From positions 8,280 through 72,279 of the forward strand of contig CASGBM010000001.1 of NCBI GenBank assembly GCA_949299615.1: a stretch of DNA of 64,000 nucleotides, given 5' to 3'. The notes under the pieces were generated by a model. It saw nothing but the letters and a program-made list of their open reading frames with translations. It was not told the origin of the DNA and searched no databases. Below are positions 412 through 22,545 of the stretch, piece by piece. The stretch's first letter is position 1. Each line of letters opens with the position of its first letter. The position numbers were made by a program, and so were the translations under genes. This DNA comes from an uncultured Eubacteriales bacterium (lineage in GTDB: Bacteria; Bacillota; Clostridia; UBA1381; UBA9506).

Positions 412-467
412 TAGGGAAGCAAAATACGCAAAAATTACAAGCTATATTATGAAAGGAGAAATGTTTT

Positions 468-969: not shown

Positions 970-990
970 TAAAGAAAGGAGAAAGGAACA

Positions 991-1815: not shown

Positions 1816-1891
1816 TACGCGAAAAAAACAAGGTATTTAATGGAAGAACTAACTAATGAACATGATACATATTTGAAAGGAGAAAACAAAA

Positions 1892-2146
1892 ATGGAAGCA
1901 AATGAAAAAATGGTTAGCGAAGAGGTTTTAGAAACTGCGGAAGAAATGGTGACAACTAGTTCCGGAAAAGGGCTTAAAGTAGCTGCGGGGATCGGTTTGG
2001 TCGTACTTGCGGGCGTATTAGCTTATAAGTATGTGGCAAAACCGGTCATTGCAAAAATCAAAGCCAAGAAGGAAATGGAAATCTCCCATGTCAACGTGGT
2101 GGAAGCCGATGCTGATGATTTAGAAGAAGAACAGGAAGAACTCTAA
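1892..2146 (+). CDS. Small membrane protein with acidic C-terminus
   Basis: RBS AAAGGAGAAAAC; hydrophobic segment GLKVAAGIGLVVLAGVLAY; followed by a terminator. Confidence 0.55.
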   Translation: MEANEKMVSEEVLETAEEMVTTSSGKGLKVAAGIGLVVLAGVLAYKYVAKPVIAKIKAKKEMEISHVNVVEADADDLEEEQEEL

Positions 2147-2173
2147 TCAACAAAAACTAAGTTAGGAAAAAGG

Positions 2174-2212
2174 GAAGACGCTTAATACAAAGCGTTTTCT
2201 CTTTTATTTTTT
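2174..2212 (+). terminator. Rho-independent terminator
   Basis: 9-bp stem GAAGACGCT(2174-2182)/AGCGTTTTC(2191-2199), 8-nt loop, then a T-rich tail. Confidence 0.6.
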
Positions 2213-2223
2213 AAAAGGAGGCA

Positions 2224-2832
2224 ATGTGGATTGTGGAAGAATATAAATCAAACTCCCATAAAGCAAAAGAGGCAATGAGAGAAAAAGTCCCCGAAAAGAA
2301 AATTGAAAAAGTGATTACCGGAACGGCCCGCACAAGGAAGAAAAACGGCATTGAAAAATTGGCCCGGGTGTTTATGCCCGACGATGTGCAGGACGTGAAG
2401 TCTTATATTCTAATAGACGTGCTGGTTCCGATGATCAAGGACGCGGCGATTGATATTTTAAAAACCTTGTTTTATGGGGAATCCAGTTTAGGACGTAAAG
2501 GTTCTGCGGCTTCTAAAATATCCTACCGGAATTATTACGACCGTGAAAGCGACCGGAAAAGAAATTACAGCTCCTCTGCGCTGCGTTCCCGGTACGGCTA
2601 TGACGATATCGTATTGGACAGCCGGGGGGAAGCGGAAGAAGTTCTTCTGCGGATGGACGAGCTGATCGATTCGTACGGAGTGGCGAGTGTTGCGGATTTA
2701 TATGAACTGGTCGGAAAAACAGGGGACTTTACTCACAACAAGTATGGATGGACGGATATTCGCAGCGCGTCGGTTGTCCGCGTGAGAGACGGATATTTGC
2801 TGAAATTCCCGAAGGCAATGCCGCTGGACTAA
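2224..2832 (+). CDS. Phage hypothetical protein
   Basis: 202-aa ORF with RBS AAAGGAGG; no recognised motif. Confidence 0.55.
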   Translation: MWIVEEYKSNSHKAKEAMREKVPEKKIEKVITGTARTRKKNGIEKLARVFMPDDVQDVKSYILIDVLVPMIKDAAIDILKTLFYGESSLGRKGSAASKISYRNYYDRESDRKRNYSSSALRSRYGYDDIVLDSRGEAEEVLLRMDELIDSYGVASVADLYELVGKTGDFTHNKYGWTDIRSASVVRVRDGYLLKFPKAMPLD

Positions 2833-2848
2833 AGAATGGAGGGATTTT

Positions 2849-3163
2849 ATGAAAACAGAAGAGTTGGATAAATTTGCTAGGGCCTTTATAGCTGCAAGTG
2901 ATATTCCTACGTTTCCGGAAGAAGATCTTGTGAATCATCCGCCGCACTATAAATCGGAAACGGGATTGGAGACAATCGACGTGATCGAGGCGTTTACCTT
3001 TGATTTAAAAGGCATTGAAGCAACGGATACAGCGAACATCATCAAATATATTTGCCGGTGGAAAAAGAAAGACGGGATTCGTGATTTGGAAAAAATCTTA
3101 TGGTATACAAAGCACCTAATCAATCATCTGAAGAAAATGGAAAAGGAGAATGAAAAACAATGA
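2849..3163 (+). CDS. DUF3310-like phage protein
   Basis: VNHPPHYKS..GLETIDVIEAF...IIKYICRWKKKDGIRDLEKILWY matches my recollection of the DUF3310 pattern (HPxHY, IE.ID, KY..R..KK, DL.KA..Y). Confidence 0.65.
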   Translation: MKTEELDKFARAFIAASDIPTFPEEDLVNHPPHYKSETGLETIDVIEAFTFDLKGIEATDTANIIKYICRWKKKDGIRDLEKILWYTKHLINHLKKMEKENEKQ

Positions 3164-4107
3164 ATAAAATGGAGATAACAAACCGTTTGGGAAAGACATT
3201 CTATAAAGCAAAATTTATTTTACAAAAGCACAGCCCGGAAATATTAGTGGTTGCCGGGGTCGCCGGGACGGTTGTGAGCGCGGTGATGGCGTGCCGGGCG
3301 ACGACCAAGATAAACGGCATATTGGCGCAGACCAAGATAGAAGTGGATCAGATTCACGAAGCGGAAGAAACGCGTCCGGACGAGGAATATTCTGATGACG
3401 ACTGCAAAAAAGATCTGGCGATCGTTTACGTCCAGACCGGGATTAAATTTGCAAAGCTGTACGCCCCGTCCGTAATACTCGGGGCTTTGTCCATTACCGG
3501 GATTTTAGCGTCCAACAACATATTAAGAAAAAGAAATGTCGCGCTTGCCGCCGCGTACACCGTTGTGGACAAAGGCTTTAAGGAATACCGCAGCCGCGTG
3601 GTGGAACGGTTCGGCGAAGAAGTTGACAAAGAGCTGAAATATAACATCAAAGCAAAGAAATTTGAAGAAACGGTCATCGACGAGGGAAGCGGGAAAGAAA
3701 AGAAAGTGAAAAAAAGCGTAAATGTGGCCGACCCGAACGAGCACAGCGATTATGCGCGGTTCTTTGATGAAGCGAGCCGAAATTGGGAGAAAAACTCGGA
3801 GTACAATTTAATGTTCCTGCGCGCGGAGCAGAATTATGCAAACGACCGCCTGCGGGCAAGAGGATATTTATTCTTAAACGAAGTTTACGAACGTCTGGGG
3901 ATCCCGATGACAAAGGCCGGACAGATTGTCGGGTGGGTGTATAAACCGGATGATCCGGAATTTAAAGGCGATAATTATGTTGACTTCGGGATTTATGAGA
4001 TTGACCGGGAGAGGAACCGGGCGTTTGTGAACGGGTATGAGCGTTCCATCCTTTTGGACTTTAACGTGGACGGGCCGATCTTAGATTCCATACCGATGGA
4101 AAGATGA
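3160..4107 (+). CDS. Membrane-anchored phage protein, paralog family member
   Basis: Same N-terminal TM motif and C-terminal domain as 991..1815. Confidence 0.65.
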   Translation: MNKMEITNRLGKTFYKAKFILQKHSPEILVVAGVAGTVVSAVMACRATTKINGILAQTKIEVDQIHEAEETRPDEEYSDDDCKKDLAIVYVQTGIKFAKLYAPSVILGALSITGILASNNILRKRNVALAAAYTVVDKGFKEYRSRVVERFGEEVDKELKYNIKAKKFEETVIDEGSGKEKKVKKSVNVADPNEHSDYARFFDEASRNWEKNSEYNLMFLRAEQNYANDRLRARGYLFLNEVYERLGIPMTKAGQIVGWVYKPDDPEFKGDNYVDFGIYEIDRERNRAFVNGYERSILLDFNVDGPILDSIPMER

Positions 4108-4156
4108 ATCAATGATATTTTCCGGCGGCGGAAAAACTATATTTAAGCTGAAAGTA

Positions 4157-4169
4157 CCCCCCCCCCCCC
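4157..4169. repeat. C13 homopolymer tract (intergenic)
   Basis: 13 consecutive C, followed by ATCTTGTGGGCAGGGG, 43 nt upstream of the ATG at 4212. Confidence 0.95.
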
Positions 4170-4211
4170 ATCTTGTGGGCAGGGGCCGAAACGAGGAAGG
4201 AGTGAAAAACT

Positions 4212-4316
4212 ATGATGAGTAATATGCTGACTTTTGTATCCTGCGGGCTCGCAGCGATGGCAGGCATTTGCTTTGTCGGTGGAATCGCCGTTTTATCAGG
4301 AGGAAAGGAGAAATAA
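4212..4316 (+). CDS. Small hydrophobic peptide (34 aa; below ORF-track cutoff)
   Basis: RBS GGAAGGAG upstream; MMSNMLTFVSCGLAAMAGICFVGGIAVLSGGKEK; stop 4314-4316. Confidence 0.4.
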   Translation: MMSNMLTFVSCGLAAMAGICFVGGIAVLSGGKEK

Positions 4317-4319
4317 GAA

Positions 4320-4502
4320 GTGGACGGTTTGGAACATTTTATATATGCGATCGACAACATGCTTGACACCAAGAGAAAGCGGCACATTATCGGCGGTATT
4401 TTAATGAGCATTTCTACGCTTCTTGGCGGGCTGGCGATCACTGTGATGACAATTAGGAATGAAAACTATGAAGACGACGAGGAGTTGGAAGAGTATGAAT
4501 AA
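4320..4502 (+). CDS. Small membrane protein with acidic tail
   Basis: GTG start after AGGAGGAAAGGAG; TM segment HIIGGILMSISTLLGGLAITVMTI. Confidence 0.45.
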   Translation: MDGLEHFIYAIDNMLDTKRKRHIIGGILMSISTLLGGLAITVMTIRNENYEDDEELEEYE

Positions 4503-5064
4503 ATTCGGAAGCGTTGCCGCGTTTGTAATCGGGGCTGCGGCTGGGTCGGCCGTGACGTGGGTGTATGCAAAAAATAAATATGAAGCGCTCATTCAGGAAG
4601 AAATCGATTCGGTGAAAGAGCATTTTCAAAAAATGGAGCAGGAAAGAAAAGAAGAGGACAACCGGGAGGAAGAAGCGAACGGATATGTGAAAAAAGACGC
4701 CGGCGTGGTCGACTATATGAAAAAAATAGAGGAGAAAAAATATGGAGACGCGCTCGGCGGAAAGGAGGCGGAAACCGTGAACAAGCCTTATGTGATTTCT
4801 CCGGACGAATTCGGGGAAAAAGACGAGTATGAACAGATCAGCCTGACATATTATTCGGACGGGGTTTTGGCTGATGAGGACGACGAAATCGTGGAAGATG
4901 CAGACAGCGTGATCGGAGAAGATTCGCTGGAACGGTTCGGGGAGTATGAAGAGGATTCCGTATTCGTAAGGAACGACCGGCTAAAATGCGACTATGAAAT
5001 TTTAAAAGACCAGCGGAATTATCCCGGGCCTTTTTACAAACATACGGAACGGGTGGATGATTAA
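4495..5064 (+). CDS. Phage protein with YtxH-like N-terminal helix and acidic C-terminal half
   Basis: ATG 4495 overlaps the upstream stop (ATGAATAA). MNKFGSVAAFVIGAAAGSAVTWVY resembles YtxH-type N-termini. Confidence 0.5.
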   Translation: MNKFGSVAAFVIGAAAGSAVTWVYAKNKYEALIQEEIDSVKEHFQKMEQERKEEDNREEEANGYVKKDAGVVDYMKKIEEKKYGDALGGKEAETVNKPYVISPDEFGEKDEYEQISLTYYSDGVLADEDDEIVEDADSVIGEDSLERFGEYEEDSVFVRNDRLKCDYEILKDQRNYPGPFYKHTERVDD

Positions 5065-5612
5065 TGACGAAGAGCGAGTTGAACAACGAATATTTAGAAT
5101 GGATGTATCAGCTCGTATGTGATGAACGGTATGCAAAACGTCCGTCCTATCGGAAATTGTTTTCTTATCTGCACCATATTGATTTTACATATCGGATTGG
5201 GATGGATGGGAACCGGTCGGAAGATGGGATGGACCTTAGGTACCGTTTTGGTTATGAAAAATCATATAAGAGCCCTATGATTGCTGCTTTTCTTGATGAC
5301 CGGCCTTGCAGTGTTTTGGAAATGCTGATTGCGCTTTCCATCCGCTGCGAAGAGATCATGGCCGATTCAGATGTCGGCGACCGGGTTGGACAATGGTTTT
5401 GGAATATGATTGTAAATCTCGGTTTGGGTTCTATGAACGACTCAAAATTTGATAAGGGCTATGTAGACGAAGTGATATCTAAATTTCTGGACCGGCAGTA
5501 CAGCCCGACCGGAGAAGGCGGACTGTTTACGGTCAGGCATTCCAGATATGACATGAGGTCTGTCGAAATTTGGTATCAGATGTGCTGGTATTTAGATGAG
5601 ATATTGCAGTAA
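5064..5612 (+). CDS. Phage hypothetical protein
   Basis: 182-aa ORF, start overlaps the upstream stop (TAATGA). Confidence 0.55.
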   Translation: MTKSELNNEYLEWMYQLVCDERYAKRPSYRKLFSYLHHIDFTYRIGMDGNRSEDGMDLRYRFGYEKSYKSPMIAAFLDDRPCSVLEMLIALSIRCEEIMADSDVGDRVGQWFWNMIVNLGLGSMNDSKFDKGYVDEVISKFLDRQYSPTGEGGLFTVRHSRYDMRSVEIWYQMCWYLDEILQ

Positions 5613-5624
5613 CAGGAGGACGAT

Positions 5625-5831
5625 ATGGTACATTCAGAAGTTTATGAAGAGTTTACATCCATATTTGCAGATTTGGTGCATCGTGTGCAGGATTGGTACC
5701 CGAACGGGAAGAACAGCATCCGCATACAATGCGCGGACAAAAAAGAATATATTTTTTCAATCGAAAGCGAAGAAAATTGGAAATTTGAGACGGTGTCCAG
5801 TTTCATCAACAATCTGAAAGGGGGAATTTGA
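5625..5831 (+). CDS. Phage hypothetical protein
   Basis: RBS AGGAGG 8 nt upstream of the ATG. Confidence 0.5.
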   Translation: MVHSEVYEEFTSIFADLVHRVQDWYPNGKNSIRIQCADKKEYIFSIESEENWKFETVSSFINNLKGGI

Positions 5832-5832
5832 T

Positions 5833-6066
5833 ATGGATGAAATGATACGGTATGTGTTCAGGAACATGAAAGAAACCGATATGACTTTAAAAATGATGAA
5901 AAAAATCCTTGCGCGGCAATCGAAAATAAACAGCGCGGTCAATCTGTCCATTACGGCTTTTGCGGTCTGCCTCATCATCCTCGAACGGAAAAGGGCTGAG
6001 CAGGACAAAAGGATAGAAGCGCTGGAAAAAAAGATGAGGGAGCGAAAAACTGCGGAAGGAGCATAG
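5833..6066 (+). CDS. Small membrane/coiled-coil protein
   Basis: RBS GGGGGA; TM segment AVNLSITAFAVCLIIL. Confidence 0.5.
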   Translation: MDEMIRYVFRNMKETDMTLKMMKKILARQSKINSAVNLSITAFAVCLIILERKRAEQDKRIEALEKKMRERKTAEGA

Positions 6067-6073
6067 GATTTTG

Positions 6074-9000
6074 ATGATTGACTTTTTAATGATTGCGACG
6101 CGCAGTACGAAGCGTGATGTAATAGAAATCTATCCAAAATTCATTATCAAAAAAAGTTCCGACTTGATGATTCGGGGCGGCGACTTCTATGCGGTATGGT
6201 TGGAAGAACGCGGGTTGTGGTCGACGGATGAACAGGACGCATTGCAGCTGATTGACCGGGAACTGGACCGGTATGCGGAAGAAAACAGCCAAAAATTTGA
6301 ATCGGGGGTCCGCATTCTGCATATGTGGGATTCGGAATCCGGTATGATTGACCGGTGGCATAAATATTGCCAGAGCCAGATGCGGGATTCGTTTCATATG
6401 CTGGATGAGAAAATGATATTTTCAAACACCGAGACCAATAAAAAAGATTACGCAAGCAAGAGGCTCCCTTATCCTCTGGAAGCCGGGGAGATCGCCGCTT
6501 ACGATAAACTGATGTCGACTTTATATTCCGAGGAGGAACGGAGGAAAATCGAATGGGCGATCGGTGCTGTTGTAACCGGGGATTCGAAAAAGATACAGAA
6601 ATTTATGGTTTTATACGGAGCTGCCGGGACCGGTAAATCAACGGTCCTAAACATCATTCAGCAATTGTTTGAAGGATATTATTCCGTATTTGACGCGAAA
6701 GCGCTCGGCTCTACCAGCAACGCCTTTGCTTTGGAAGCGTTTAAAAGCAACCCGCTTGTGGCGATCCAGCATGATGGGGATTTGTCTAAAATTGAAGACA
6801 ACACGAGGCTCAACAGTTTGGTATCGCATGAGCTCATGACTGTGAATGAAAAATTCAGATCCACTTATTCCAACCGGTTTAAGTGTTTTTTATTTATGGG
6901 GACAAACAAGCCGGTAAAGATAACGGACGCAAAGTCCGGTTTGATCCGGAGACTGATCGACGTTTCGCCGTCCGGGAATAAACTGGGCCCGAAAGAATAC
7001 AAAAACATCATGAAACAGATCGGTTTTGAGCTCGGGGCGATTGCGTATCATTGCAGGGAGGTATATTTAAGCAATCCCGGGCAGTATGACGATTATATTC
7101 CGATCACAATGCTGGGCGCGTCAAACGATTTTTATAATTTTATCGTCGACTCGTATCATGTGTTTAAAAAAGAAGACGGAACCACATTAAAAGCCGCTTG
7201 GGAGATGTACAAAACGTACTGCGACGAAGCAAAGGTCGCCTATCCGTTTTCGCAAAGGGTGTTCAAAGAAGAACTGAAGAATTATTTTCTGGAATACAAA
7301 GAGCGGTTTAATCTTGACGACGGTACAAGGGTGCGAAGTTATTATTCCGGATTCCGCACAGAAAAATTTGAGCAGCCGGCAGACGAAAAAAAGGAAGAAC
7401 CGGCGGCGTTGATTCAGCTTGACAGTACGGGATCTATATTTGACAAAGAATGCGCCGGATGTTATGCGCAGTATGCAACAGAAAGGGAAACACCGTCAAA
7501 AAAATGGGGAAAAGTGACGACAAAGCTTTCTGATATAGATACATCCAAAATACATTATGTAAAAATACCGGAAAACCATATTGTTATTGATTTTGATATT
7601 CCGGATGAGAACGGAAATAAATCATTTCAAAAAAATATGGAAGAAGCGAGCAAATGGCCCCCTACCTATGCGGAGCTCAGCAAAAGCGGAAACGGGATCC
7701 ACCTGCATTATATTTATACAGGGGACGTATCAAAGCTGAGCCGGGTATACAGCGACCATATTGAAATAAAAGTGTTTACGGGGGAAAGCTCGCTTCGCCG
7801 GAAGCTGACAAAATGTAATCGCTTGCCGATTGCAAAAATCAGTTCAGGTCTGCCAACGAAAGGAGAAAATAAAATGGTTAATTTTGAAGGGGTGAAAAGC
7901 GAAAAGGCGCTTCGAACGCTGGTAAAAAGAAACTTGAATAAGGAAATACACCCCGCGACAAAACCGAGCGTCGATTTCATCTACAAAATTTTAGAAGACG
8001 CTTACGCGAGTACGCTGAAATATGATATTTCCGACATGCGGAACGCGGTACTTGCGTTTGCGGCGAGCAGTACACATCAGGCCGATTATTGCATTAAACT
8101 TGTAAATAAGATGCATTTTAAATCGGCAGAGTCGTCTGTTAGCGTAAAAAATGACGATTCCAAATTGGTCTTTTATGACGTGGAGGTTTTTCCAAACCTG
8201 TTTTTGGTGAACTGGAAAGTCGCTGAGGATTATTCGCCGAAAGATTTTCCAACTTGGGACGCATATATACATAAATTGCGGACGAATCATAAACCTATCG
8301 TACGGATGATTAACCCAAAGCCTGCGGAAATTGAAGAACTGATGCAGTTCCGTCTGGTTGGGTTTAACTGCCGGAGGTATGACAATCATATTCAGTATGC
8401 CAGACTGATGGGCTACACAAACGAACAGCTTTATTCGCTCTCGCAGAAAATAATATCACAGAGTGCCAACTGTTTTTTTGGAGAGGCATACAATGTCTCT
8501 TATACGGACGTTTACGATTTTTCAAGCGAGAAGCAGTCGCTGAAGAAATTCGAAATAGAGCTCGGCCTGCATCATAAAGAACTGGGGCTTCCATGGGACA
8601 AGCCGGTTCCGGAAGAACTGTGGACGAAAGTCGCCGAATACTGCGACAATGATGTTTTGGCGACGGAAGCAACATTTAATGCAAGAGAAGCTGATTTCAC
8701 AGCGAGGCAGATTCTGGCGGATGTGGCTGGGATGAGCGTCAACGATACGACAAATTCGCTGACAACGAGAATTATATTTGGCAAAAACCGGACGCCGCAA
8801 GATCAGTTCCGATATAGGAACATGGGGGCCTTTCCGGAAGACGGCCGGGTCTATCATTATACCACAACAAAAGATTTGGTGCTTTACGACCGCTTTGAAG
8901 AGGGGAATTACACCGTCTTTGACGAACATGGGAAACCGATCTTTCCGGGGTACAAATATGAAAACGGGAAATCGACGTACCGCGGAGAGGAAGTCGGAGA

Positions 9001-10291
9001 AGGCGGATATGTGTATGCGGAGCCGGGAATGTACAGTAACGTTGCTTTGCTGGATATTGCGTCCATGCATCCTTCCAGCATTGTGGCGGAAAACCTGTTC
9101 GGCGATACTTATACCAAACGGTTCAAAGAAATTTTGGACGCTAGGATCGCAATCAAGCACAAAGACTTTGACAAAGCGAAGAACATGCTGGGAGGGGCGC
9201 TGGCAAAATATTTGACGGACGAGAACGCTGCCGCTGATTTGGCGCAGGCGCTTAAGATCGCAATTAATTCTGTTTACGGCCTTACTTCAGCAAGTTTTGA
9301 AAACCCGTTCCGCGATAACCGGAACAAAGATAATATTGTTGCAAAACGAGGAGCCCTGTTTATGATCAACCTCAAGCACGAGGTGCAGAAACGGGGCTTT
9401 ACTGTTGCGCATATTAAAACGGACTCCATCAAGATACCGGATGCGACGCCGGAAATCATACAATTTGTCATGGATTACGGTCGTCAATACGGATATACGT
9501 TTGAACATGAGGCCACCTATGACAGAATGTGCTTGGTGAACGACGCCGTTTATATTGCAAAGTATAAAGACGGGAAACACGCCGGGGAATGGACGGCGAC
9601 GGGGACACAGTTCCAAGTTCCCTATGTATTCAAGAAACTGTTCAGCAAAGAACCGATTGAATTCAAGGATATGTGCGAAACGAAGTCGGTTACTACAGCT
9701 TTATATTTGGATATGAATGAGGCTTTGCCGGATGTGACTGTTTATGAGAAGGAATACGACAAGCTATGGAAGCAGGTCACGAACAAACGGAAGCTAAGTG
9801 AGCCGATGGAGGAAGAAACTCGGCGTATTGAGGAATTGTCCGAGCTCATCGCAAAAGGTCACAATTATATTTTCATTGGGAAAGTGGGACAGTTCTGCCC
9901 GATAAAACCCGGATGCGGCGGCGGACTTCTCATGCGTGAACAGAACGGAAAGTATAATTCTGCAACCGGGGCGAAAGGATACCGCTGGCTGGAATCCGAA
10001 ATGGTTCGGGAGCTTGGAAAAGAGGACGAAATTGACCGGTCTTATTACGACAAAATGGTGGACGATGCCGTTTCTGCTATTTCCGAATTCGGAGATTTTG
10101 AATGGTTTGTTTCGGACGACGCTTATGCCGACGAAAAGGATGAAAAAAGCCTGATGCCCTGCGGGGACGGAAAATACCGCACCTGTTTCGACTGCCCGAA
10201 ATTCCGTGACGAGCTTCCGCCGGACTGCGGACTTGGGTATGATATTTCTGATGTAATTGTAAAAATGCCTGACAAGAAAGGGGAAAAATAA
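6074..10291 (+). CDS. Fused replicase: P-loop (SF3/D5-like) helicase + AEP primase-polymerase + family-B DNA polymerase with 3'-5' exonuclease
   Basis: Walker [10 protein letters not shown] (6617-6643). AEP motifs IVIDFDIP (7580-7603) and SGNGIHLHY (7685-7711). PolB Exo[10 protein letters not shown] (8171-8197), ExoII-like FNCRRYDNH, Exo[13 protein letters not shown]. Motif [13 protein letters not shown] (9047-9082), motif [10 protein letters not shown] (9254-9280), motif C HIKTDSI (9410-9430). Confidence 0.8.
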
Positions 10292-13878: not shown

Positions 13879-14033
13879 ATAAAACCGAACCTACTTATAA
13901 AAAGCAAGCAATCAAAGCGGCGAAAGATTTACGCTATGGTGATGAAATTATTAAAAAATTGAAAGCCGCCAGCACCGACGGGGAAATTGAACGGATTATG
14001 ATCGGGGCCAGAAAGGAGATAAATGGAAAATGA
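13875..14033 (+). CDS. Small phage protein (52 aa)
   Basis: ATG 13875 overlaps the upstream stop (ATGA) and is preceded by AAAGGAG. Confidence 0.4.
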   Translation: MNKTEPTYKKQAIKAAKDLRYGDEIIKKLKAASTDGEIERIMIGARKEINGK

Positions 14034-14746
14034 TAAGATTTGAGAACCTTGAAATAGTGGGTTGGAAGCATGCGATCCGTGGGATGCGCAATCCAATGAA
14101 CTCTTGGGAAAAGAGTGATAGTTGTACGCAGGGTTGTGTTTGGTGTAACGAGTTCTGCGGAAAGCCTCTTCCTGGTTGCGATAAAGAAAGTGGCTTATAT
14201 CTTGGCCCGAACGACCTCGACCTGATGAAACGGTTGCGGAATGCCGGGACGGATCACCGGAAGTTCATGCGGATGATTACCGTGTATGTGGATATTACTG
14301 CTCCATTATATTGGTGGAAAGAGATGGACACATACCAAGTCGGCGTGGTAAAGAACTCTTGCTCAACTATGCATAAAATTCAGGCGAAGGAGTTTACGCT
14401 GGAGGATTTCTCGTGTGAGCATTTGACTGAGCAATCGAGGAATGTCTTAAACAAAATAATCGAGACGCTTAATATGTATCGCGCGTTGTACATCGCAAAG
14501 GACGATAAGAAAGTAGATATGTATAGCGTCATGTCTGATGAATGTTACGCAAAATACAAGAAAGATATTTGGTGGCAGATGATCCAGCTCCTCCCGAGCT
14601 CTTACAACCAGAGACGGACGGTAATGCTGAATTACGAAGTATTGGCGAATATTTACAAGGCTCGTAACATTCATAAACTCGATGAATGGGTTGAATTTTG
14701 TAAATGGATCGAGACTTTTCCATATAAAGAATTGATTACCGGTTGA
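14030..14746 (+). CDS. ThyX-like (flavin-dependent thymidylate synthase fold?) protein with Cys-rich insert; function uncertain
   Basis: GTDHRKFMRMITVYVDITAPLYWWKEMDTYQVGVVKNSCSTMH resembles the ThyX core (H..lEH..f.f.i.g.SR....q..RHR..S.qqS.RY), but the RHR/SxRY residues are replaced. Insert CTQGCVWCNEFCGKPLPGC. Confidence 0.3.
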   Translation: MIRFENLEIVGWKHAIRGMRNPMNSWEKSDSCTQGCVWCNEFCGKPLPGCDKESGLYLGPNDLDLMKRLRNAGTDHRKFMRMITVYVDITAPLYWWKEMDTYQVGVVKNSCSTMHKIQAKEFTLEDFSCEHLTEQSRNVLNKIIETLNMYRALYIAKDDKKVDMYSVMSDECYAKYKKDIWWQMIQLLPSSYNQRRTVMLNYEVLANIYKARNIHKLDEWVEFCKWIETFPYKELITG

Positions 14747-14992: not shown

Positions 14993-15007
14993 ATCAGCTT
15001 CTTCCAG

Positions 15008-15042
15008 GTAAAAGGTCATTCGCGTGGCCTTTTACTTTTTTT
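15008..15042 (+). terminator. Rho-independent terminator (copy 1 of a duplicated module)
   Basis: 11-bp stem GTAAAAGGTCA/TGGCCTTTTAC, 6-nt loop, T7 run. Confidence 0.75.
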
Positions 15043-15059
15043 AAAAACTGTGTTATAAT
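15031..15059 (+). promoter_or_regulatory. Sigma-A-type promoter with extended -10 for the 15082 moron
   Basis: TTTACT (15031-36), 17-nt spacer containing TGT, TATAAT (15054-59). Confidence 0.5.
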
Positions 15060-15081
15060 ACATTTAAAGGAGGCGTGTTCT

Positions 15082-15333
15082 ATGAAAACTAATACCGGTG
15101 TTGAATATGAGGAAACAATTCATATTAAAGGGAAAATGGTCTGTCCGGTAAAACAGAAAAACGGAAGATGGACCACCATTATGGAAGATTACGAAGAAGA
15201 TATTCCGGATTTAGGACGAGAATATTTAATGTGTAATAAATGCGGGTGGTCAACATATCCCGAATGTATGAGTTGGTGTACAATAACAAAAACAACAAAA
15301 CGATGTGAATATGTCGCCGATGGGCTGAGGTAA
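15082..15333 (+). CDS. Cys-rich small protein (possible Zn-binding), moron
   Basis: RBS AAAGGAGG; 6 Cys including CNKC; own promoter and terminator. Confidence 0.55.
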   Translation: MKTNTGVEYEETIHIKGKMVCPVKQKNGRWTTIMEDYEEDIPDLGREYLMCNKCGWSTYPECMSWCTITKTTKRCEYVADGLR

Positions 15334-15350
15334 TACCTCGGCTCTTTTTT
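15322..15350 (+). terminator. Rho-independent terminator
   Basis: 9-bp stem GGGCTGAGG/CCTCGGCTC (2 G-U pairs), loop TAATA containing the stop codon, T6. Confidence 0.6.
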
Positions 15351-15396
15351 ATTGTTTATATTTAAGATTGCTGTTTTAATCGGCTATCTTATTTAT

Positions 15397-15443
15397 AAAA
15401 AATACGGGCTTCATACTACTTGCGATAGTACGATTGCCCGTAT
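15397..15443 (-). terminator. Minus-strand rho-independent terminator
   Basis: Arms ATACGGGC (15402-09) / GCCCGTAT (15436-43). The A6 run on the + strand is the T-run on the - strand, downstream of the minus-strand ORF. Confidence 0.5.
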
Positions 15444-15477
15444 AACTTTTCTCCTTTCATCTTTAACCACCTTTTAA

Positions 15478-15627
15478 TTAAACGGCGTTAAAACTGAGTG
15501 AAAAAGAACTTTTCCCACCATTTGACGTTGAGCTATACTTAATCGATAATCTGCTGAGTATAGCTTCGATCAAAAATTTGATAAGGTCAAAGATTTGATC
15601 CCTTAAAGATGATTGGCGATTACCCAT
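15478..15627 (-). CDS. Small protein (49 aa), the only convincing minus-strand gene in the phage part
   Basis: Minus strand reads GGGGAGGAGGCTGACAAAATG (strong RBS), then MGNRQSSLRDQIFDLIKFLIEAILSRLSIKYSSTSNGGKSSFSLSFNAV; stop at 15478-80. Confidence 0.45.
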   Translation of the reverse strand: MGNRQSSLRDQIFDLIKFLIEAILSRLSIKYSSTSNGGKSSFSLSFNAV

Positions 15628-15635
15628 TTTGTCAG

Positions 15636-15681
15636 CCTCCTCCCCAAGTTTTATAAATAAATTATAATTTGGGGTAGGAGG
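15636..15681. promoter_or_regulatory. Divergent control region: inverted repeat carrying both RBSs around an A+T-only core
   Basis: CCTCCTCCCCAA (15636-47) and TTGGGGTAGGAGG (15669-81) are inverted copies with a 1-nt indel. The core contains the perfect palindrome AAATTATAATTT (15659-70), which gives TATAAT in both orientations. Confidence 0.5.
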
Positions 15682-15759
15682 TTTGTCAAGGTGGCTTTAA
15701 ATTATGTCAAACAGACATCCAAGGTGAAATCAAAATTTTATAATCAACTTCTTACTACG

Positions 15760-15793
15760 GTAAAAGGTCATTCGTTTGGCCTTTTACTTTTTT
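15760..15793 (+). terminator. Terminator-like hairpin (copy 2 of the duplicated module), upstream of the 52-aa ORF
   Basis: GTAAAAGGTCATTCGTTTGGCCTTTTAC + T6; identical to copy 1 except for 2 loop bases. Confidence 0.6.
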
Positions 15794-15819
15794 ATTGCTT
15801 ATATTTAGGAGGAATATAT

Positions 15820-15978
15820 ATGTTTACAAAAGAATTGATGAAAAATAAAATAATGTCAATCATACTCATGGTGATAGGGGTATTAAGCATATTCATTGAG
15901 GGCGACGCAACATTTACTATATTCTCATTAATGATAGGATTACCGTTATTCTTCGCAAAGAAAAACTGGATCAATTGA
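15820..15978 (+). CDS. Small two-TM membrane peptide (52 aa)
   Basis: ATG 15820 after TAGGAGGA; MFTKELMKNKIMSIILMVIGVLSIFIEGDATFTIFSLMIGLPLFFAKKNWIN. Confidence 0.5.
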   Translation: MFTKELMKNKIMSIILMVIGVLSIFIEGDATFTIFSLMIGLPLFFAKKNWIN

Positions 15979-16054
15979 TGAAGTACATAGACCCGCTTTT
16001 TTAATCTAGGTTAAAACGGCGGGTCTTTTCACGCTCTGTAATAACGAAAAATAC

Positions 16055-16316
16055 GCCCACTTTTATTTTTCAAATTTGGGCTTTTGCCCACTTTTGATCG
16101 AATTTATAGTGATTCAGAAAGATATTTATCCTGAATTTTATGCATTTTGCCCACTTTTTCCGGGCTTTTGCCCACTTTTAAAAACAAAAGTGGGCTTGAA
16201 AAAATGCGATAGTGGTGCGGGTTTGCGGGTTTTTTGCCCACTTTCCCACTTTTTTTCCTTATTTAATCGCGATAAAAAAATTAAAAAAATATAATAATTG
16301 CGAAAAAAAAGTGGGC
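16055..16316. repeat. Iteron-like array: 8 copies of GCCCACTTT(T) (6 direct, 2 inverted)
   Basis: Direct copies at 16055, 16086, 16149, 16170, 16236 and (CCCACTTTT) 16245. Inverted AAAAGTGGGC at 16186 and 16307. Copies at 16170-79 and 16186-95 form a perfect 10-bp palindrome with a 6-nt spacer. Confidence 0.85.
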
Positions 16317-16390
16317 ATTTGGCCACAAACAATTTTTTGAAGAAAAATACGATTATATCTTCCCTTTTCTAGACAGGTGTGATATACTAA

Positions 16391-16518
16391 GTTTGCCACA
16401 CATTTTAATAATCATTTATTCGGGGAACACTTTGTGTAAAAGGTGTTTTCTCTCTTAACTTATACCCGAATACTTGGTTAAGATTGTGTGGCAACAATGA
16501 GGGATTGCACTTTTTATA
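16391..16518 (+). ncRNA. Structured 5' leader (three-way-junction fold), candidate cis-regulatory RNA; class not recognised
   Basis: P1 TTGCCACACA (16393-402) / TGTGTGGCAA (16485-94), perfect 10 bp. P2 16423-16450. P3 CTTAACT (16454-60) / GGTTAAG (16476-82). Confidence 0.35.
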
Positions 16519-16548
16519 GTGCGTCTCTTATTTGGGGCGCACTTTTTT
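16519..16548 (+). terminator. Leader terminator immediately upstream of the RBS of 16568
   Basis: Stem GTGCGTC/GGCGCAC (7 bp, one G-U), 10-nt loop, T6; RBS AAAGGAGGG follows at 16555. Confidence 0.5.
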
Positions 16549-16567
16549 AATTTTAAAGGAGGGTTAT

Positions 16568-17983
16568 ATGATGAAAAGAAAGACAATAATTAGTATCATT
16601 TTTATTTTAAGTTTGATGTGCACACAAGCGTTTGCGTCGGACATGGCAACCCCAACTTCTTCATCGGTATTTGTAAACGGATATGCAGTGACATTTGATG
16701 CGTATTTAATCGATGATAATAATTATTTTAAACTTCGTGATATCGCATATGTATTGAGTTATACGGAAAAACAGTTTGAGGTTGGATATGACGAAACATC
16801 AAATGCGATTTCTTTGACAAGTGGTCAATCATACACTTCTGTAGGAGGGGAACTGGCTTCTGGCGGTACGGAAGAAAAATCGTGTTCCGAAACTTCATCA
16901 AAAATATTGAAGGACGGAGTTGAAACTCAGTTTTCCGGATATTTAATAGATGGAAATAATTATTTTAAATTGCGTGACATAGGAGCGGCTTTCGATTTTA
17001 GCGTAGAATGGGATTCTTCCCAGAATGCAATCTTGATTGATACGTCGCGTGGATATATTTCCGAAAACGCATCGGCTAATAATGTTCCTTCTGGGTTTAC
17101 AAACGGTTATGAGCCGGCAGAGTTTTCAAAATATAATTCTCCTGCTTCTACCAACGGGCTCGGGGGAACGAATATATATATAGATGGCGTTATCTATCGA
17201 ACTAGTTTGGCGTCGGCTGGGGAATACGGTAATATTATTTTTGGTTATATTACGGACCATTCAGGGCATGATTGGGTCGCTATTCTTCACCATGATCTGG
17301 TCGTTTCTCAAAATGAATTTGATAGTATTATAGGAAAACCCATTGTTCTTTTGGGGTCATATGGAGGATTTTCCGAAACCGAAAAGATGCCTGTGATATA
17401 TATGTCCGAGTTGTGCTTAAAAGAAACCGGAGAAATAAAATACGGGATTCAAAAAATATTAGATTTAACAGATGATGAAACAAATAATACGAATGAAGCA
17501 GAAGATGGTAATACGGTCAATGAGGAATATGATTTATCAACGCCTTCTAAAATAACAAGTTATTTATCGGAACATTATGATTCCGTTGATACGGAAATGG
17601 GAACATGGAATTTTACGTTTTCTGTACTTGAAAATGATATGGAAATGTTCCCAAAAGATTATACGATTTGGGTCGAATATGATTTAGGTCAAATGAACGA
17701 TTTACAATATTCTAATAAATATTCGGAATCCCAAAAAGCGGAAACGAAACAGCAGTTAAAAGATTTTATGAAAACAATAGCCGACGACTTATTAAGTAAG
17801 ATCGACAATAAAAAAATAGAATGTTCATATCATTATAGTTATTATAAATATGAATATATTCAAGAAGGTTTGCAGGTACTTGAATATTGTACTTGGATTA
17901 ATTACGAGCCTGGTGGAAGTTACTCTGATACTCCAGTGTCCACGTTTAGATGGTACCCGGACTATGATGAGGAAATTTGGTAA
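16568..17983 (+). CDS. Secreted protein with two copper-amine-oxidase-N-terminal-like (stalk) repeats; moron
   Basis: Signal peptide MMKRKTIISIIFILSLMCTQAFAS. Repeats VFVNGYAVTFDAYLIDDNNYFKLRDIAYVL and ILKDGVETQFSGYLIDGNNYFKLRDIGAAF. Confidence 0.65.
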   Translation: MMKRKTIISIIFILSLMCTQAFASDMATPTSSSVFVNGYAVTFDAYLIDDNNYFKLRDIAYVLSYTEKQFEVGYDETSNAISLTSGQSYTSVGGELASGGTEEKSCSETSSKILKDGVETQFSGYLIDGNNYFKLRDIGAAFDFSVEWDSSQNAILIDTSRGYISENASANNVPSGFTNGYEPAEFSKYNSPASTNGLGGTNIYIDGVIYRTSLASAGEYGNIIFGYITDHSGHDWVAILHHDLVVSQNEFDSIIGKPIVLLGSYGGFSETEKMPVIYMSELCLKETGEIKYGIQKILDLTDDETNNTNEAEDGNTVNEEYDLSTPSKITSYLSEHYDSVDTEMGTWNFTFSVLENDMEMFPKDYTIWVEYDLGQMNDLQYSNKYSESQKAETKQQLKDFMKTIADDLLSKIDNKKIECSYHYSYYKYEYIQEGLQVLEYCTWINYEPGGSYSDTPVSTFRWYPDYDEEIW

Positions 17984-18148: not shown

Positions 18149-18183
18149 GACAGAGATGCGTTTTTGCATCCCTGTCTTTTTTT
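18149..18183 (+). terminator. Rho-independent terminator closing the moron island
   Basis: Stem GACAGAGATGC/GCATCCCTGTC (one mismatch), 6-nt loop, T7. Confidence 0.7.
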
Positions 18184-18290
18184 GTGCGCGAAAAAAACAT
18201 TCCCTTTTATGAAGAGAGAATAAAAAAGTCATTTTTATAACATTCTCTTTTACTTTTATTGAACAACCACATGAAAGGAGGCCCATCCAG

Positions 18291-18581
18291 TTGCTGGAAC
18301 GAGATTTTCAAGCGAAACTCATCAAAGAATTAAAAACGAGATTTCCGAACTGCATTGTTGTGAAAAATGACGCGGAATATATTCAAGGGATTCCCGATCT
18401 AACGATTTTTTACAAAAATAAATGGGCCACTTTGGAATGTAAAAACAGTATGCGCGCAAAAAAGCAGCCCAACCAAGATTATTATGTGGAAACGATGAAT
18501 GAAATGTCTTTCTCAAGATTTATATATCCGGAAAATAAGGAGGAAATATTAAATGAACTTCAACAGGCATTCGAATCTTGA
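18291..18581 (+). CDS. VRR-NUC-like nuclease
   Basis: GIPDLTIFYKNKWATLECKNS fits the PD...(E)xK core of VRR-NUC; RBS GAAAGGAGG; TTG start. Confidence 0.55.
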   Translation: MLERDFQAKLIKELKTRFPNCIVVKNDAEYIQGIPDLTIFYKNKWATLECKNSMRAKKQPNQDYYVETMNEMSFSRFIYPENKEEILNELQQAFES

Positions 18582-19110
18582 AGGCCAACATGCTTTTCTA
18601 GGAGCAAGTAAATATCATTGGATCAATTACGACGAGCTGAAAGTTGCAGAATCATTTTCTAAATTTTTAGCAGTCCAAAAAGGAACGATACTTCATTCTT
18701 TCGCGGCGCAATGTATTTCACTCGGGCAGAAATTACCAAAGTCTAAAAAGACATTGAATATGTATGTAAACGATGCGATCGGATTTAAAATGACCCCCGA
18801 GCAAATTTTATATTACTCGGAAAATTGTTTTGGCACAGCGGATGCTATATGCTTTAGAAATGATTTTCTGAGAATTCATGATTATAAAAGTGGTGTCGTT
18901 CCGGCACACATGGAGCAGCTTGAAATTTATGCTGCTCTTTTTTGTTTGGAATATCATGTAAAACCGAATGATATTGAGACCGAGCTTCGCTTGTATCAAA
19001 ATGACGAAATATTATATCACCATCCAACGGCGGAAGATATTGTTCCGATTATGGATAAAATTATTACTTTCGATAAGATCATAAACAAAATAAAAGAACG
19101 GGAGGGTTAA
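18553..19110 (+). CDS. PD-(D/E)XK (Cas4/RecB-like) nuclease
   Basis: GTADAICF...LRIHDYKSG gives a D...D-x-K arrangement; RBS AAGGAGGA. Confidence 0.5.
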   Translation: MNFNRHSNLEGQHAFLGASKYHWINYDELKVAESFSKFLAVQKGTILHSFAAQCISLGQKLPKSKKTLNMYVNDAIGFKMTPEQILYYSENCFGTADAICFRNDFLRIHDYKSGVVPAHMEQLEIYAALFCLEYHVKPNDIETELRLYQNDEILYHHPTAEDIVPIMDKIITFDKIINKIKEREG

Positions 19111-19113
19111 ACT

Positions 19114-21789
19114 ATGAATCCTATAGCGGAAGATATTTTAATGCATTATGGAATGCCGAAACGTTCCGGAAGATATCCTTGGGGTTCTGGTGAAAACCCT
19201 TATCAGAGGAACGGGGATTTTTTAAGCAGGGTTGACGAACTAAAAAAGCAAGGCCTGAGCGAAACAGAAATCGCAAAATCCATGGGTCTTACTACCACGC
19301 AATATAGGACGCAAAAAGCCTTGGCTAAGGATGAACGAAGAGCTGTTGACGTCGCCACAGCAAAAGGCCTTAGGGAAAAAGGATATAGTTTGAACGAAAT
19401 CGCGAGCCAGATGGGCTATGCAAACGACTCTTCCGTCCGTTCTCTTTTAAACGAAGATTCAGAGGCCCGCATGAATCAGGCAAAAAAGACTGCCGAGTTT
19501 TTGAAAAAACAAATCGACGAAAAAGGTATGATCGATGTTGGGACCGGCGTCGAAAGAGAGCTCGGCATTTCAAAAGAAAAGCTGAATCAAGCACTTTATA
19601 TTTTGGAAATGGAAGGATATCCTGTTTATGGAGGAGGCGTTCCGCAGGTTACGAATCCCGGAAAGCAGACAAACATTAAAGTGATATGCCCTCCCGGAAC
19701 AGAACACAAAGAGATATATAATTTTGAAAATATTCATTCTGTCACAGATTATATTTCTCACGACGGCGGAGACACGTTTGATAAATTTGTATATCCTAAA
19801 AGCATGGATTCAAAAAGGATTAAAATCAGATATGCCGAAGATGGAGGAATACAAAAAGACGGAGTTGTTGAAATTCGTCGCGGTGTTGACGATCTTTCTT
19901 TAGGTGATTCACATTATGCTCAAGTCAGGATTCTCGTTGACGGTAAAAAATATATAAAAGGAATGGCTGTTTATTCTGATGATCTTCCTGATGGAGTCGA
20001 TTTGATATTTAATACCAATAAACCAAAAGGGACTCCGAAAGATGATGTTCTTAAAACAATAAAAGATGATCCTGATAACCCGTTTGGATCGCTGATAAAA
20101 GCGGGCGGACAAAGTTATTACATAGATAAAGACGGAAACCGGCAGCTTTCCTTAATCAATAAACGAGCAGAAGAAGGAGATTGGATGGATTGGTCGGATA
20201 AACTTCCCTCGCAGTTTTTATCGAAGCAAAGTATATCTTTGGTTAAAAAACAGCTCGACCTTACGGCAGCTGATAAAATTTCAGAGTTTGACGAGATTTG
20301 TTCCTTGACGAACCCGACAGTAAAAAAGGCTTTGCTAAAATCATTTTCTGACGACTGCGATGCTGCGGCGGTTCATTTGAAGGCGGCTGCTTTGCCAAGG
20401 CAGAAATACCAAGTTATTTTACCGATCACTTCCATGAAAGATAACGAAGTATATGCCCCCAATTATAAAAATGGCGAAACCGTTGCGCTTATCCGTTTTC
20501 CGCATGGAGGCACTTTTGAAATACCGATTTTAACTGTAAATAATAAGCATGGCGACGCTAAGAAAGCGTTGGGAAATGTAAAAGACGCGATCGGAATTAA
20601 CAGTAAAGTTGCCGAAAGATTGTCGGGTGCCGACTTTGACGGTGATGCCGTTATGGTGATACCTTGCAATTCTAGGAACAGCAAAGTTAAGATCACATCG
20701 CAGCCGCCGTTAAAAGGGCTTGAGGGTTTTGATCCTAAGATGGAATATCCGGAGCGTCCCGGAATGAAGTATATGAAAAATACACAGACGGAAATGGGTA
20801 TTATTTCAAACCTGATAACAGACATGACGTTAAAAGGAGCGAGTCAGGATGAACTGGCGCGAGCTGTTCGGCATAGCATGGTTGTTATCGATGCTGAAAA
20901 ACATAAGCTGAATTATAGACAAAGCGAAATCGATAACGGAATCGATTCTTTAAAAAGGAAGTATCAAGGGAGGATCGGTGAAGATGGCAAATACCATGAG
21001 GGCGCGTCGACGCTAATCTCCCGGTCTAAGTCGGAAGTGTCTGTAACGAAACGGCAAGGAAGCCCTATCATAGATAAGGAAACCGGTAAACAAACATGGA
21101 AAGAAGTAGACGAGCCAACTTATGTCGATAAGAGAACTGGCAAAGTGAAAAGAAGAACTCAGGCAAGCACGGCTATGGCTGAAACGAATGATGCACACAG
21201 CCTTTCTTCCGGACATCCGATAGAAGAGGTTTATGCGGATTATGCCAATAAGATGAAATCTTTAGGAAACAGAGCCAGAAAAGAGATGGTTACAACCGGT
21301 AAAATAGCCTATTCTGCTTCAGCAAAAGCGACATATCAGAAAGAAGTGGACTCCCTAAACTCGAAACTGAACATCTCTTTAAAAAATGCTCCACGAGAAA
21401 GACAAGCACAAACTATTGCTAATGCCGTAGTTGAAGCTAAAAAGCAGGACAATCCTGATATGACAAAAGGGGAAATTAAGAAGGTCAGCCAGCAAGCTTT
21501 AACCCAAGCAAGAATTAATGTTGGAGCTAAAAGAGAAACAATAAAGATTACAGATAGAGAATGGGAAGCGATACAAGCCGGAGCGATTAGTGAGAATAAA
21601 CTAACGCAGATCATAAACAATGTCGACATGGATGATTTAAGACAACGGGCTACGCCTCGTGCTAAAACTTCTTTGAGCACTGCAAAAATTAACAAGATCG
21701 CTGCAATGAACGCTTCTGGTTACAGTACCTCAGAAATAGCCGAAGCTCTTGGAATTTCTTCTTCTACTGTATCGAAACACTTGAGTTGA
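19114..21789 (+). CDS. Putative single-subunit two-barrel (YonO/RdRP/beta-prime-like) RNA polymerase with HTH segments
   Basis: VALIRFPHGGTFEIPILTV...AIGINSKVAERLSGADFDGDAVMVIP, with ADFDGD at 20629-20646. HTH-like segments: LSETEIAKSMGLTTTQY, YSLNEIASQMGYANDSSVRSLL and C-terminal GYSTSEIAEALGISSSTVSKHL. Confidence 0.5.
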   Translation: MNPIAEDILMHYGMPKRSGRYPWGSGENPYQRNGDFLSRVDELKKQGLSETEIAKSMGLTTTQYRTQKALAKDERRAVDVATAKGLREKGYSLNEIASQMGYANDSSVRSLLNEDSEARMNQAKKTAEFLKKQIDEKGMIDVGTGVERELGISKEKLNQALYILEMEGYPVYGGGVPQVTNPGKQTNIKVICPPGTEHKEIYNFENIHSVTDYISHDGGDTFDKFVYPKSMDSKRIKIRYAEDGGIQKDGVVEIRRGVDDLSLGDSHYAQVRILVDGKKYIKGMAVYSDDLPDGVDLIFNTNKPKGTPKDDVLKTIKDDPDNPFGSLIKAGGQSYYIDKDGNRQLSLINKRAEEGDWMDWSDKLPSQFLSKQSISLVKKQLDLTAADKISEFDEICSLTNPTVKKALLKSFSDDCDAAAVHLKAAALPRQKYQVILPITSMKDNEVYAPNYKNGETVALIRFPHGGTFEIPILTVNNKHGDAKKALGNVKDAIGINSKVAERLSGADFDGDAVMVIPCNSRNSKVKITSQPPLKGLEGFDPKMEYPERPGMKYMKNTQTEMGIISNLITDMTLKGASQDELARAVRHSMVVIDAEKHKLNYRQSEIDNGIDSLKRKYQGRIGEDGKYHEGASTLISRSKSEVSVTKRQGSPIIDKETGKQTWKEVDEPTYVDKRTGKVKRRTQASTAMAETNDAHSLSSGHPIEEVYADYANKMKSLGNRARKEMVTTGKIAYSASAKATYQKEVDSLNSKLNISLKNAPRERQAQTIANAVVEAKKQDNPDMTKGEIKKVSQQALTQARINVGAKRETIKITDREWEAIQAGAISENKLTQIINNVDMDDLRQRATPRAKTSLSTAKINKIAAMNASGYSTSEIAEALGISSSTVSKHLS

Positions 21790-22055: not shown

Positions 22056-22211
22056 AACACTTCGTTGAATTCGATAAAACAACATTAATTTTGTACTGTA
22101 TAGGCTTTGTTATCTATTTTACGATACATAAGTTTGAAAAAATGTTATCAATTGATGATTTAACTCATGTAAAAAGAAGGTTTTTTGCTTCTTCCCATAT
22201 ATGGACGTATA

Positions 22212-22256
22212 TTGATACACGGGGAGGGGGTACTAAAATACCACCCCCCCTCTTGT
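22212..22256 (+). promoter_or_regulatory. Candidate sigma-A promoter overlapping a G-run/C-run hairpin (possible late promoter and/or cos-region element)
   Basis: TTGATA (22212-17), 16-nt spacer, TAAAAT (22234-39). GGGGAGGGGG (22221-30) pairs with CCACCCCCCC (22241-50). TCTTGT follows. Confidence 0.35.
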
Positions 22257-22545
22257 ATCGCGGCGGTCTTCAAAAATTCTCCGGGGGTAAATTTTTAGAG
22301 GCGTTTTATAGGTGGTAAAGTGTTTAGACGAGCTTACTAGGTTAGCCGGGATTGATCAAGCCAATCTTCTTTCATTTTTATTTCTCCTTTCGGTGAATGA
22401 AAAGCCTAATTTGGTAAGCTCTTTTAAATACTTTACCATTATTAAAAGAAGAGAAAACCATAAGGATACAGATAGAGACCTAGAATGTAATTATGTTGAA
22501 CCGAACTGAAAACTGCGAAGAACAATTAGAGAGGAGGCAGGAAGT

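Follow-up and report, generated by a model that had tools for sequence, protein, structure and literature searches.

Origins of replication that combine iterons with an unwinding element include the lambda ori, the oriV of theta plasmids and the SaPI ori. In the last of these an initiator that is an SF3 helicase binds two sets of short iterons, which lie to either side of an A+T-rich region. Octamer iterons, both direct and inverted, also make up the ori and crr of phage P4, where they are bound by the alpha primase-helicase, while RHH proteins bind repeat arrays of another kind, represented by omega of pSM19035 and by the Arc and Mnt operators of P22. Here we analysed a dense array of short repeats in a prophage of an uncultured Eubacteriales bacterium and compared it with these systems.

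The array most resembles the iteron origins, the SaPI ori especially, in its 4-9 phased sites in both orientations, in the A+T core that these bracket, in its single non-coding copy and in the SF3 helicase-primase that the phage encodes. Unlike those origins it lies ∼6 kb from the replicase gene and no initiator domain covaries with the repeat, and the origin role is in our case inferred from sequence. With the P4 ori and crr it shares an asymmetric site of 8-10 bp used in both orientations and a helicase of the related D5/P4-alpha-like family (DUF5906). However, P4 alpha has a C-terminal origin-binding domain, whereas no such variable domain is seen here, and the sites form one cluster rather than two. 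The likeness to RHH-bound arrays comes from relatives such as L043, L017 and L026, which have an RHH gene beside 4-10 direct or inverted repeats at the same locus; the phage in our sequence, in contrast, lacks an RHH gene and has a different motif. What we describe is a family-wide array of iteron or operator type that is absent from the literature we searched, which included the preprint in which the Actinobacteria-Firmicutes supercluster and its polymerase were defined (10.1101/842583), the YonO paper (PMC5467207) and the Arthrobacter and Gordonia cluster papers; the motif of phage Vardy concerns a different region.

The prophage and its repeat array

The window, by which we mean the whole 64-kb stretch of DNA analysed, contains an integrated prophage of the 1706 / FP_oengus / actinophage supercluster. 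Its tyrosine integrase gene (C1:3261-4544; the protein carries an N-terminal zinc ribbon) adjoins host LacI and fucose isomerase genes, and on the far side the holin gene ends near position 49343 of the window and is followed by host ddl, a racemase gene and argS. The left part of the window holds three DUF6353 paralogues and small conserved genes. The original prediction had credited the phage with a complete replicase, and this is borne out: the gene at 6071-10291 encodes a 1406-aa helicase-primase-PolB fusion, with an SF3 helicase at ∼aa 120-440 (DUF5906), an AEP-type primase at ∼aa 500-620 (motifs HIVIDFDI and SGNGIHLHY) and then a family B polymerase. Since the phage encodes its own AEP-type primase, RNA polymerase is not required for priming. 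Genes for an annealing protein, a methyltransferase, an SF2 helicase and ThyX (14030-14746) follow the replicase, and past ThyX lies a variable A+T-rich zone that holds the array and a gene for a secreted 483-aa protein. The conserved downstream operon spans 18291..21789 and ends with a polymerase gene that lies 2.8 kb downstream of the array. After the small gene that follows the polymerase there is a non-coding gap (22060-22540) that contains GGGGAGGGGG..CCACCCCCCC and precedes genes for a small Lys-rich protein, an HNH endonuclease and the large terminase; this gap is likely the cos region. Scans with Pfam, PHROGs and NCBIfam revealed no recognisable CI/Cro-type repressor in the prophage (G000:C1:3261-8280, window 1-6070 and the rest), and domain scans found no ParA/ParB or other partition genes in it.

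The features of the array and of its surroundings are as follows.

15989..16026, + strand: likely terminator, an inverted repeat (19-nt arms, 84% complementary, no gap) with a T run
16055..16064, + strand: site 1, GCCCACTTTT
16086..16095, + strand: site 2, GCCCACTTTT, within a GGGCTTTTGCCCACTTTT context, 31 bp from site 1
16149..16158, + strand: site 3, GCCCACTTTT
16170..16179, + strand: site 4, GCCCACTTTT, 21 bp from site 3, left arm of a palindrome
16186..16195, - strand: site 5, in inverted orientation (top strand AAAAGTGGGC), the palindrome's right arm
16236..16253, + strand: tandem double site GCCCACTTT/CCCACTTTT with a 9-bp offset, left border of the conserved core module
16254..16306, strand not applicable: A+T-rich core of ∼55 bp, ∼90% A+T over 40 bp
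16307..16316, - strand: inverted site AAAAGTGGGC, bordering the core module on the right, with the double site 72 bp away
16319..16327, - strand: degenerate second copy TTGGCCACA, 8 bp past the inverted site
18183..18218, + strand: GCGCGAAAAAAACATTCCCTTTTATGAAGAGAG, a conserved element in non-coding DNA that precedes the VRR-NUC start by about 75-110 nt
18291-18581, + strand: VRR-NUC endonuclease gene, first of the conserved downstream operon
18553-19110, + strand: Cas4-like exonuclease gene of the same operon
19114-21789, + strand: gene for a YonO/QDE-1-like two-barrel RNA polymerase of 891 aa with three HTH modules

When both strands were counted, GCCCACTTT occurred seven times in the 64-kb window, and all seven copies lay inside 16055-16316 (+ strand starts at 16055, 16086, 16149, 16170 and 16236; - strand copies at 16187-16195 and 16308-16316), whereas shuffled versions of the window contained a mean of 0.56 and a maximum of 4 copies. 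The 8-mer CCCACTTT also catches the abutting copy at 16245, and its only other matches in the window are at 9881 and 11405. The array therefore totals seven GCCCACTTT sites and one CCCACTTTT site, at offsets of 0 (+), 31 (+), 94 (+), 115 (+), 132 (-), 181 (+), 189 (+) and 253 (-) bp from the first; short spacings are most often 8-9 bp, and one site in four is inverted. Motif and repeat scans thus agree with the original prediction on the 10-mer copies, on both GGGCTTTTGCCCACTTTT contexts, on all eight site positions and on the lack of the motif elsewhere in the window. The perfect 10-bp palindrome with a 6-nt spacer that it had described is likewise present (16170-16179 / 16186-16195), and its dismissal of the ORFs across the array as repeat artefacts was correct (16076-16294, for example, reads FCPL over and over). 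The core holds TCGCGA (16267-16272) and, after a 17-nt spacer, TATAAT (16290-16295), and is a candidate for either an unwinding element or a weak promoter.

The inverted repeat at 15989..16026 ends the upstream gene for a 52-aa membrane protein (15820-15978) and probably shields the array from upstream transcription; a simple terminator scan did not return it. The first gene downstream of the array in the window is a variable moron with its own candidate promoter and structured leader, and the array sits between this promoter and leader and the likely terminator. An Rfam scan of the array region gave only noise and no family match, and when window positions 15000-17000 were compared with GenBank phages by DNA similarity there was no match. 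A structured RNA was rejected on the Rfam result and because the RNA fold z-score of -5 merely reflects the inverted copies.

The original prediction had also proposed counting the motif across the host genome. Two further matches to the 11-mer TGCCCACTTTT were found in the 2.39-Mb assembly (on C46 and C118), neither of them near mraZ, which rules out a dispersed host repeat of the REP type.

Conservation in relatives and helical phasing

We collected relatives through the ThyX homologue and an exact-pattern scan, taking as an array at least four CCCACTT sites within 450 bp. This yielded 48 distinct arrays, each of them located between the ThyX/variable (moron) zone and the VRR-NUC / exonuclease / polymerase operon. 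The distance to VRR-NUC ranges from 214 bp, where no gene intervenes (L143, L035 and L172), to 3 kb with varied inserted genes. The comparison with related prophages that the original prediction had suggested therefore has a clear outcome, in that the position of the array is kept while the morons vary or are absent. Clustering is also a feature of the complete relatives, in which 8 of 12 (G009), 6 of 8 (G013) and 9 of 11 (G015) CCCACTT matches fall in one cluster, as do 5 of the 6 G[GC]CCACTT matches in phage Cheesy.

Across the arrays, 316 sites gave the consensus W-W-W-T-GCCCACTTTT. The right end of the element is constant and consists of a double site, GCCCACTT(T)[G/C]CCCACTTTT, an A+T-rich core of ∼55 bp with (TA)n and an inverted site. 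The tandem double site is present in most of 40 related modules, and the inverted site, 64-72 bp from it, is often doubled; relatives show AAGTGGGCAAGTGGGCAG or GGGCATTTGGCCA where the window has its degenerate copy (16319..16327). The upstream sites, in contrast, differ in number, spacing and orientation even among close relatives, and site orientation relative to the genes is not fixed, being entirely + in L010 and nearly all - in L035. In many relatives a gene with a ribosome-binding site begins 15-40 nt past the inverted site.

The same layout, with a motif that is identical or slightly shifted, was found in Faecalibacterium phage FP_oengus (TGGCCAAAAACCCACTT), in Cheesy and Makai of Arthrobacter (AAAAGTGGGCA and AAGTGGCCA), in Curtobacterium phage Yotsuba and Streptomyces phage Popy (AAAAGTGGCA) and in a pair of phages that come from human saliva (AGTGGG[C/A/T] and AAAACTGGCA). 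Strictly lytic actinophages without an integrase also have the motif. Other members keep the layout with unrelated repeats, namely HotFries (GTGAAATCT), Secretariat (CAGATTC-type), Lactococcus phage P078 (CCCGGATTTT), L023 (TTACATATA) and L043 (TGTATTACA). L017 and L026 have 20-bp repeats plus a few GCCCAT sites, and in phages of the L026 type these 20-bp (RHH-type) repeats stand on both sides of a GCCCA-type module.

Three further observations were made on these genomes. Gene 88 of Makai (L214 2673-3020), annotated 'hypothetical protein', runs through the AAAAGTGGGCA and TTGTGGGCA sites and is probably a repeat artefact, like the window ORF at 16076-16294. The 77,324-bp IMG/VR contig behind L023 and L072 (G001) holds two related phage segments, each with ThyX, VRR-NUC and the polymerase, one with a TTACATATA array and the other with a GCCCACTTT array; either a chimeric assembly or two phages in tandem might account for this. 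The variable zone of L055 includes a sequence (8040-8190, GGTTCGAGTCCACCCGGCTCGCC) that looks like the T-arm of a tRNA.

Adjacent sites on the same strand are spaced 8-11, 19-23, 29-31, 62-66 or 72-75 bp apart. At a period of 10.5-10.7 bp the Rayleigh R was 0.62-0.67 (99th percentile of the null, 0.22), a value drawn from 30 site maps that are partly related and so yield no clean probability. The phasing is visible in the window alone (+ sites at 0, 31, 94 and 115), while sites of opposite orientation show none. Same-orientation sites lie on one face of the helix, which points to their binding in one cooperative higher-order nucleoprotein complex. We propose that one sequence-specific protein binds the ∼10-bp site (A)AAAGTGGGCA(AAA). 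The original prediction had listed sites for a single DNA-binding protein among its readings, and the description of the array as a dense cluster of such predicted sites, rather than a host repeat, holds on the strength of its uniqueness in the genome, its conservation in relatives and its helical phasing.

Candidate functions and candidate binders

Judging from sequence features and gene context, the element is most likely a replication origin or a master control site. The array would form the cis-acting centre of a control region conserved throughout the supercluster, and the best explanation, which we put forward tentatively, is that it is the phage replication origin. The iterons would be the phased sites, and the helicase-primase-PolB protein would be loaded at the A+T core, serving as the unwinding element; proteins bound at the sites would interact, wrapping or looping the DNA and so stressing or opening the core, and replication would proceed from the array. 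This reading fits the single copy per genome, the universal, syntenic position in lytic and temperate members, the phased sites in both orientations, the bracketed A+T core and the insulation from transcription of the gap that holds the element, where the replication module ends. The sites are unique in the window and, apart from the two 11-mer matches, in the genome, they form one cluster in complete relatives, and both the position (48 arrays) and the core module are conserved whatever genes have been inserted. The repeated sites adjoin an A+T-rich element that ranks in the top five of the prophage's 40-mers for ease of melting; that it does not rank first counts against an origin. Free orientation of the sites relative to the genes fits binding sites rather than promoters, the core carries no sigma-A promoter signal beyond its A+T richness, and the downstream operon has a conserved promoter-like element of its own. 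Finally, a phage that encodes an SF3 helicase, an AEP primase and PolB needs an origin. Against this, the array is not adjacent to the replicase gene, no protein covaries with the motif and the N-half of the helicase-primase-PolB protein has no swapped domain in relatives with other repeats. The RHH and XRE genes beside arrays of other repeats, moreover, look like operator-regulator cassettes, and those relatives in which a gene starts 15-40 nt past the inverted site need a promoter in or near the module.

These last points favour a second reading, somewhat less probable, in which the sites are operators or upstream sites for a looping or wrapping regulator at an early promoter in or just past the core. 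Such a regulator would govern the VRR-NUC / exonuclease / polymerase operon and hence the lytic programme, and in a prophage the array would serve as the master off-switch. The polymerase operon comes directly after the array in every relative, and phased sites with inverted pairs are typical of looping repressors. The window core has TCGCGA-17-TATAAT with sites at about -66 to -49 and +5 to +14, the closely following genes of many relatives are suitably placed, and the prophage has no recognisable CI-like repressor that would account for its silencing. In relatives with other repeats an RHH gene lies just upstream and an XRE-HTH gene just downstream. RHH-like genes end just upstream of the array in L043 (8984-9130), L017 (11850-12032), L026 (8838-9020) and L084 (10604-10819), and an XRE-HTH gene (∼135 aa, C-terminal HTH; for example L026 9300-9701 and L043 9441-9839) closely follows the array at 16 or more loci, which include both motif classes. 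The window phage, however, has no regulator gene beside its array. What it does have, at 5625-5831, is a 68-aa ORF that lacks the HTH and whose homology (E = 1.7e-4) is to the N-domain of the XRE-type protein of these relatives. The promoter-likeness of the core is no higher than that of shuffled cores (mean 9.09 versus 9.05 in 16 diverse modules), with the + strand not significantly above the - strand, and terminator and promoter scans in three relatives brought out no single promoter position for the downstream gene. Control by the array is also harder to reconcile with retention of the motif in strictly lytic actinophages that lack an integrase, with the operon's own conserved promoter-like element, which is nearer to VRR-NUC, and with a first downstream gene in the window that is a variable moron with its own candidate promoter and leader. 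An origin and an operator array are not mutually exclusive, and we place the operator reading close behind the origin. The narrower suggestion in the original prediction, that the array is an operator for the adjacent morons, is unlikely as stated since the array is conserved while morons vary or are absent.

We looked for the binder by asking which phage proteins track the motif, and found none. In 17 phages the N-terminal half of the replicase (helicase/primase) showed no domain swap in relatives with other repeats, and no change at its C-terminus (PolB) tracked the motif. Gene presence and absence in complete relatives (among them one contig, G001, that holds two phage segments) did not track it either, and every core protein common to the window phage and Cheesy is also encoded by the L043-type phage, which is without GTGGGC sites. 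Pfam, PHROGs and NCBIfam scans assigned no DNA-binding domain to the small conserved proteins, and the model that AlphaFold built for the phrog_4678 protein from its sequence alone was too poor to use (pLDDT 44). The Bro-N domain that the annealing protein carries was rejected as the binder of the family because it is unique to the window phage.

With no phage protein tracking the motif, a host factor might be considered. Whatever the element does, its binder could be host MraZ, a nearly universal division regulator, and its sites MraZ boxes, which would explain why an AAGTGG core is common to phages of Firmicutes and Actinobacteria; we regard this as improbable. MraZ boxes are GTG(G/T) repeats with a 10-bp period and A-rich 5' flanks, and the Mycoplasma genitalium box is AAAGTGG (PMC12957436). 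The window site AAAAGTGGGC has the same GTG(G/T) core and A-rich 5' flank, and the host has an mraZ gene with upstream boxes AAAAGTGG, TTGTGGA and GAAGTGGGG at distances of 10 and 21 bp. With a weight matrix derived from 116 Firmicutes boxes, five of the eight window sites scored 10.9-14.1 bits, on a scale where genuine boxes have a mean of 14.1 (sd 4.0) and all GTGG occurrences in the window have a mean of 1.2 and a 95th percentile of 11.4. Three or four direct sites at 9-11 bp spacing occur in L162, L175, L141, L172 and L143. Compared with the MraZ operator at the mraZ/dcw promoter, then, the array is alike in its AAAGTGG core, A-rich flanks, ∼10-bp phasing and matrix scores in the genuine range. 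It is unlike that operator in its fixed G-C-A flank, in its inverted copies, in its spacings of 8-9, 21 and 31 bp and in not being at a dcw promoter. The phage sites fix G-C-A after GTGG, whereas C at that position is seen in 2% of genuine boxes (116-173 boxes), the usual letters being T-G and, in the host clade, T or G followed by G. The window also lacks three boxes at 10 bp. Furthermore, relatives use CTGGCA, CCCGGATTTT, GTGAAATCT, TTACATATA and TGTATTACA in the same layout, which one invariant host factor does not explain. An extension of this idea, to which we give as little weight, is that phages of two phyla mimic the MraZ operator in their key control or origin element, so that MraZ rings on phased boxes round the core would couple phage replication or the start of lytic growth to the state of cell division; in some lineages the role would have passed to phage-encoded RHH proteins with repeats of their own.

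Less probable still is that the array sites are promoters or loading sites of the phage two-barrel RNA polymerase, read by its HTH modules. The enzyme has three such modules and is encoded nearby, and YonO of SPbeta, which initiates the late operon at one site, offers a precedent for a single-site start (PMC5467207). However, the sites keep no constant direction with respect to the genes, the phage has the motif in one cluster only, and phages with wholly different array motifs have almost the same recognition helices in all three HTH modules; on these grounds of free orientation, single cluster and lack of covariation we rejected the sites as promoters of the polymerase. A better candidate is the sequence CGCGAAAAnnACA-N(5-8)-TATTATGA, which is multi-copy, on the coding strand and upstream of genes. 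The strongly conserved element at 18183..18218 (TTCGCGAAAAAAACATnnnnTTTTATGA, TTCGCGAAAAAAACATnnnnTTTTATGAagagag) is present 80-100 nt ahead of VRR-NUC in relatives of every repeat class (L009 10123, L023 11287, L026 9977, L035 10740 and many others). In some complete relatives many genes have a relaxed copy (CGCGAAAAnnACA, 5-8 nt, TATTATGA) upstream on the coding strand, with 10 hits in G013 and 8 in G009. The spacing of the element does not fit a sigma-A -35/-10 promoter. Because its copies lie on the coding strand ahead of many genes in some complete relatives, and because the HTH modules of the polymerase are equally invariant, we consider this element a candidate promoter through which the two-barrel polymerase may transcribe the VRR-NUC / exonuclease / polymerase operon.

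Two remaining proposals can be dismissed briefly. A partition site (parS or centromere) in a phage-plasmid, raised in the original prediction, does not fit an integrated prophage that has a tyrosine integrase, is flanked by host genes and contains neither ParA/ParB nor any other partition gene that domain scans could find. A cos/pac site does not fit the position of the array, since genome ends in related actinophages lie just after the polymerase gene and, in the window, the gap ahead of the HNH and terminase genes is ∼6 kb from the array.

Significance for the supercluster

The supercluster to which this prophage belongs comprises >250 isolated phages (of Arthrobacter, Gordonia, Streptomyces, Lactococcus and Faecalibacterium) and hundreds of gut viral contigs, and the array is the most conspicuous conserved non-coding element of its genomes. 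Such an array occupies this locus in hundreds of relatives, whose hosts are Clostridia of the gut and Actinobacteria of soil. The identity of the binder would reveal either the origin and initiator of a replicon driven by a helicase-primase-PolB protein or the switch that activates the phage polymerase. For that family of single-chain polymerases, not yet studied biochemically, the CGCGAAAA-type motif provides a testable promoter candidate. Cloned phage origins protect dairy lactococci, and a multicopy clone of the array could titrate its binder and block the phage.
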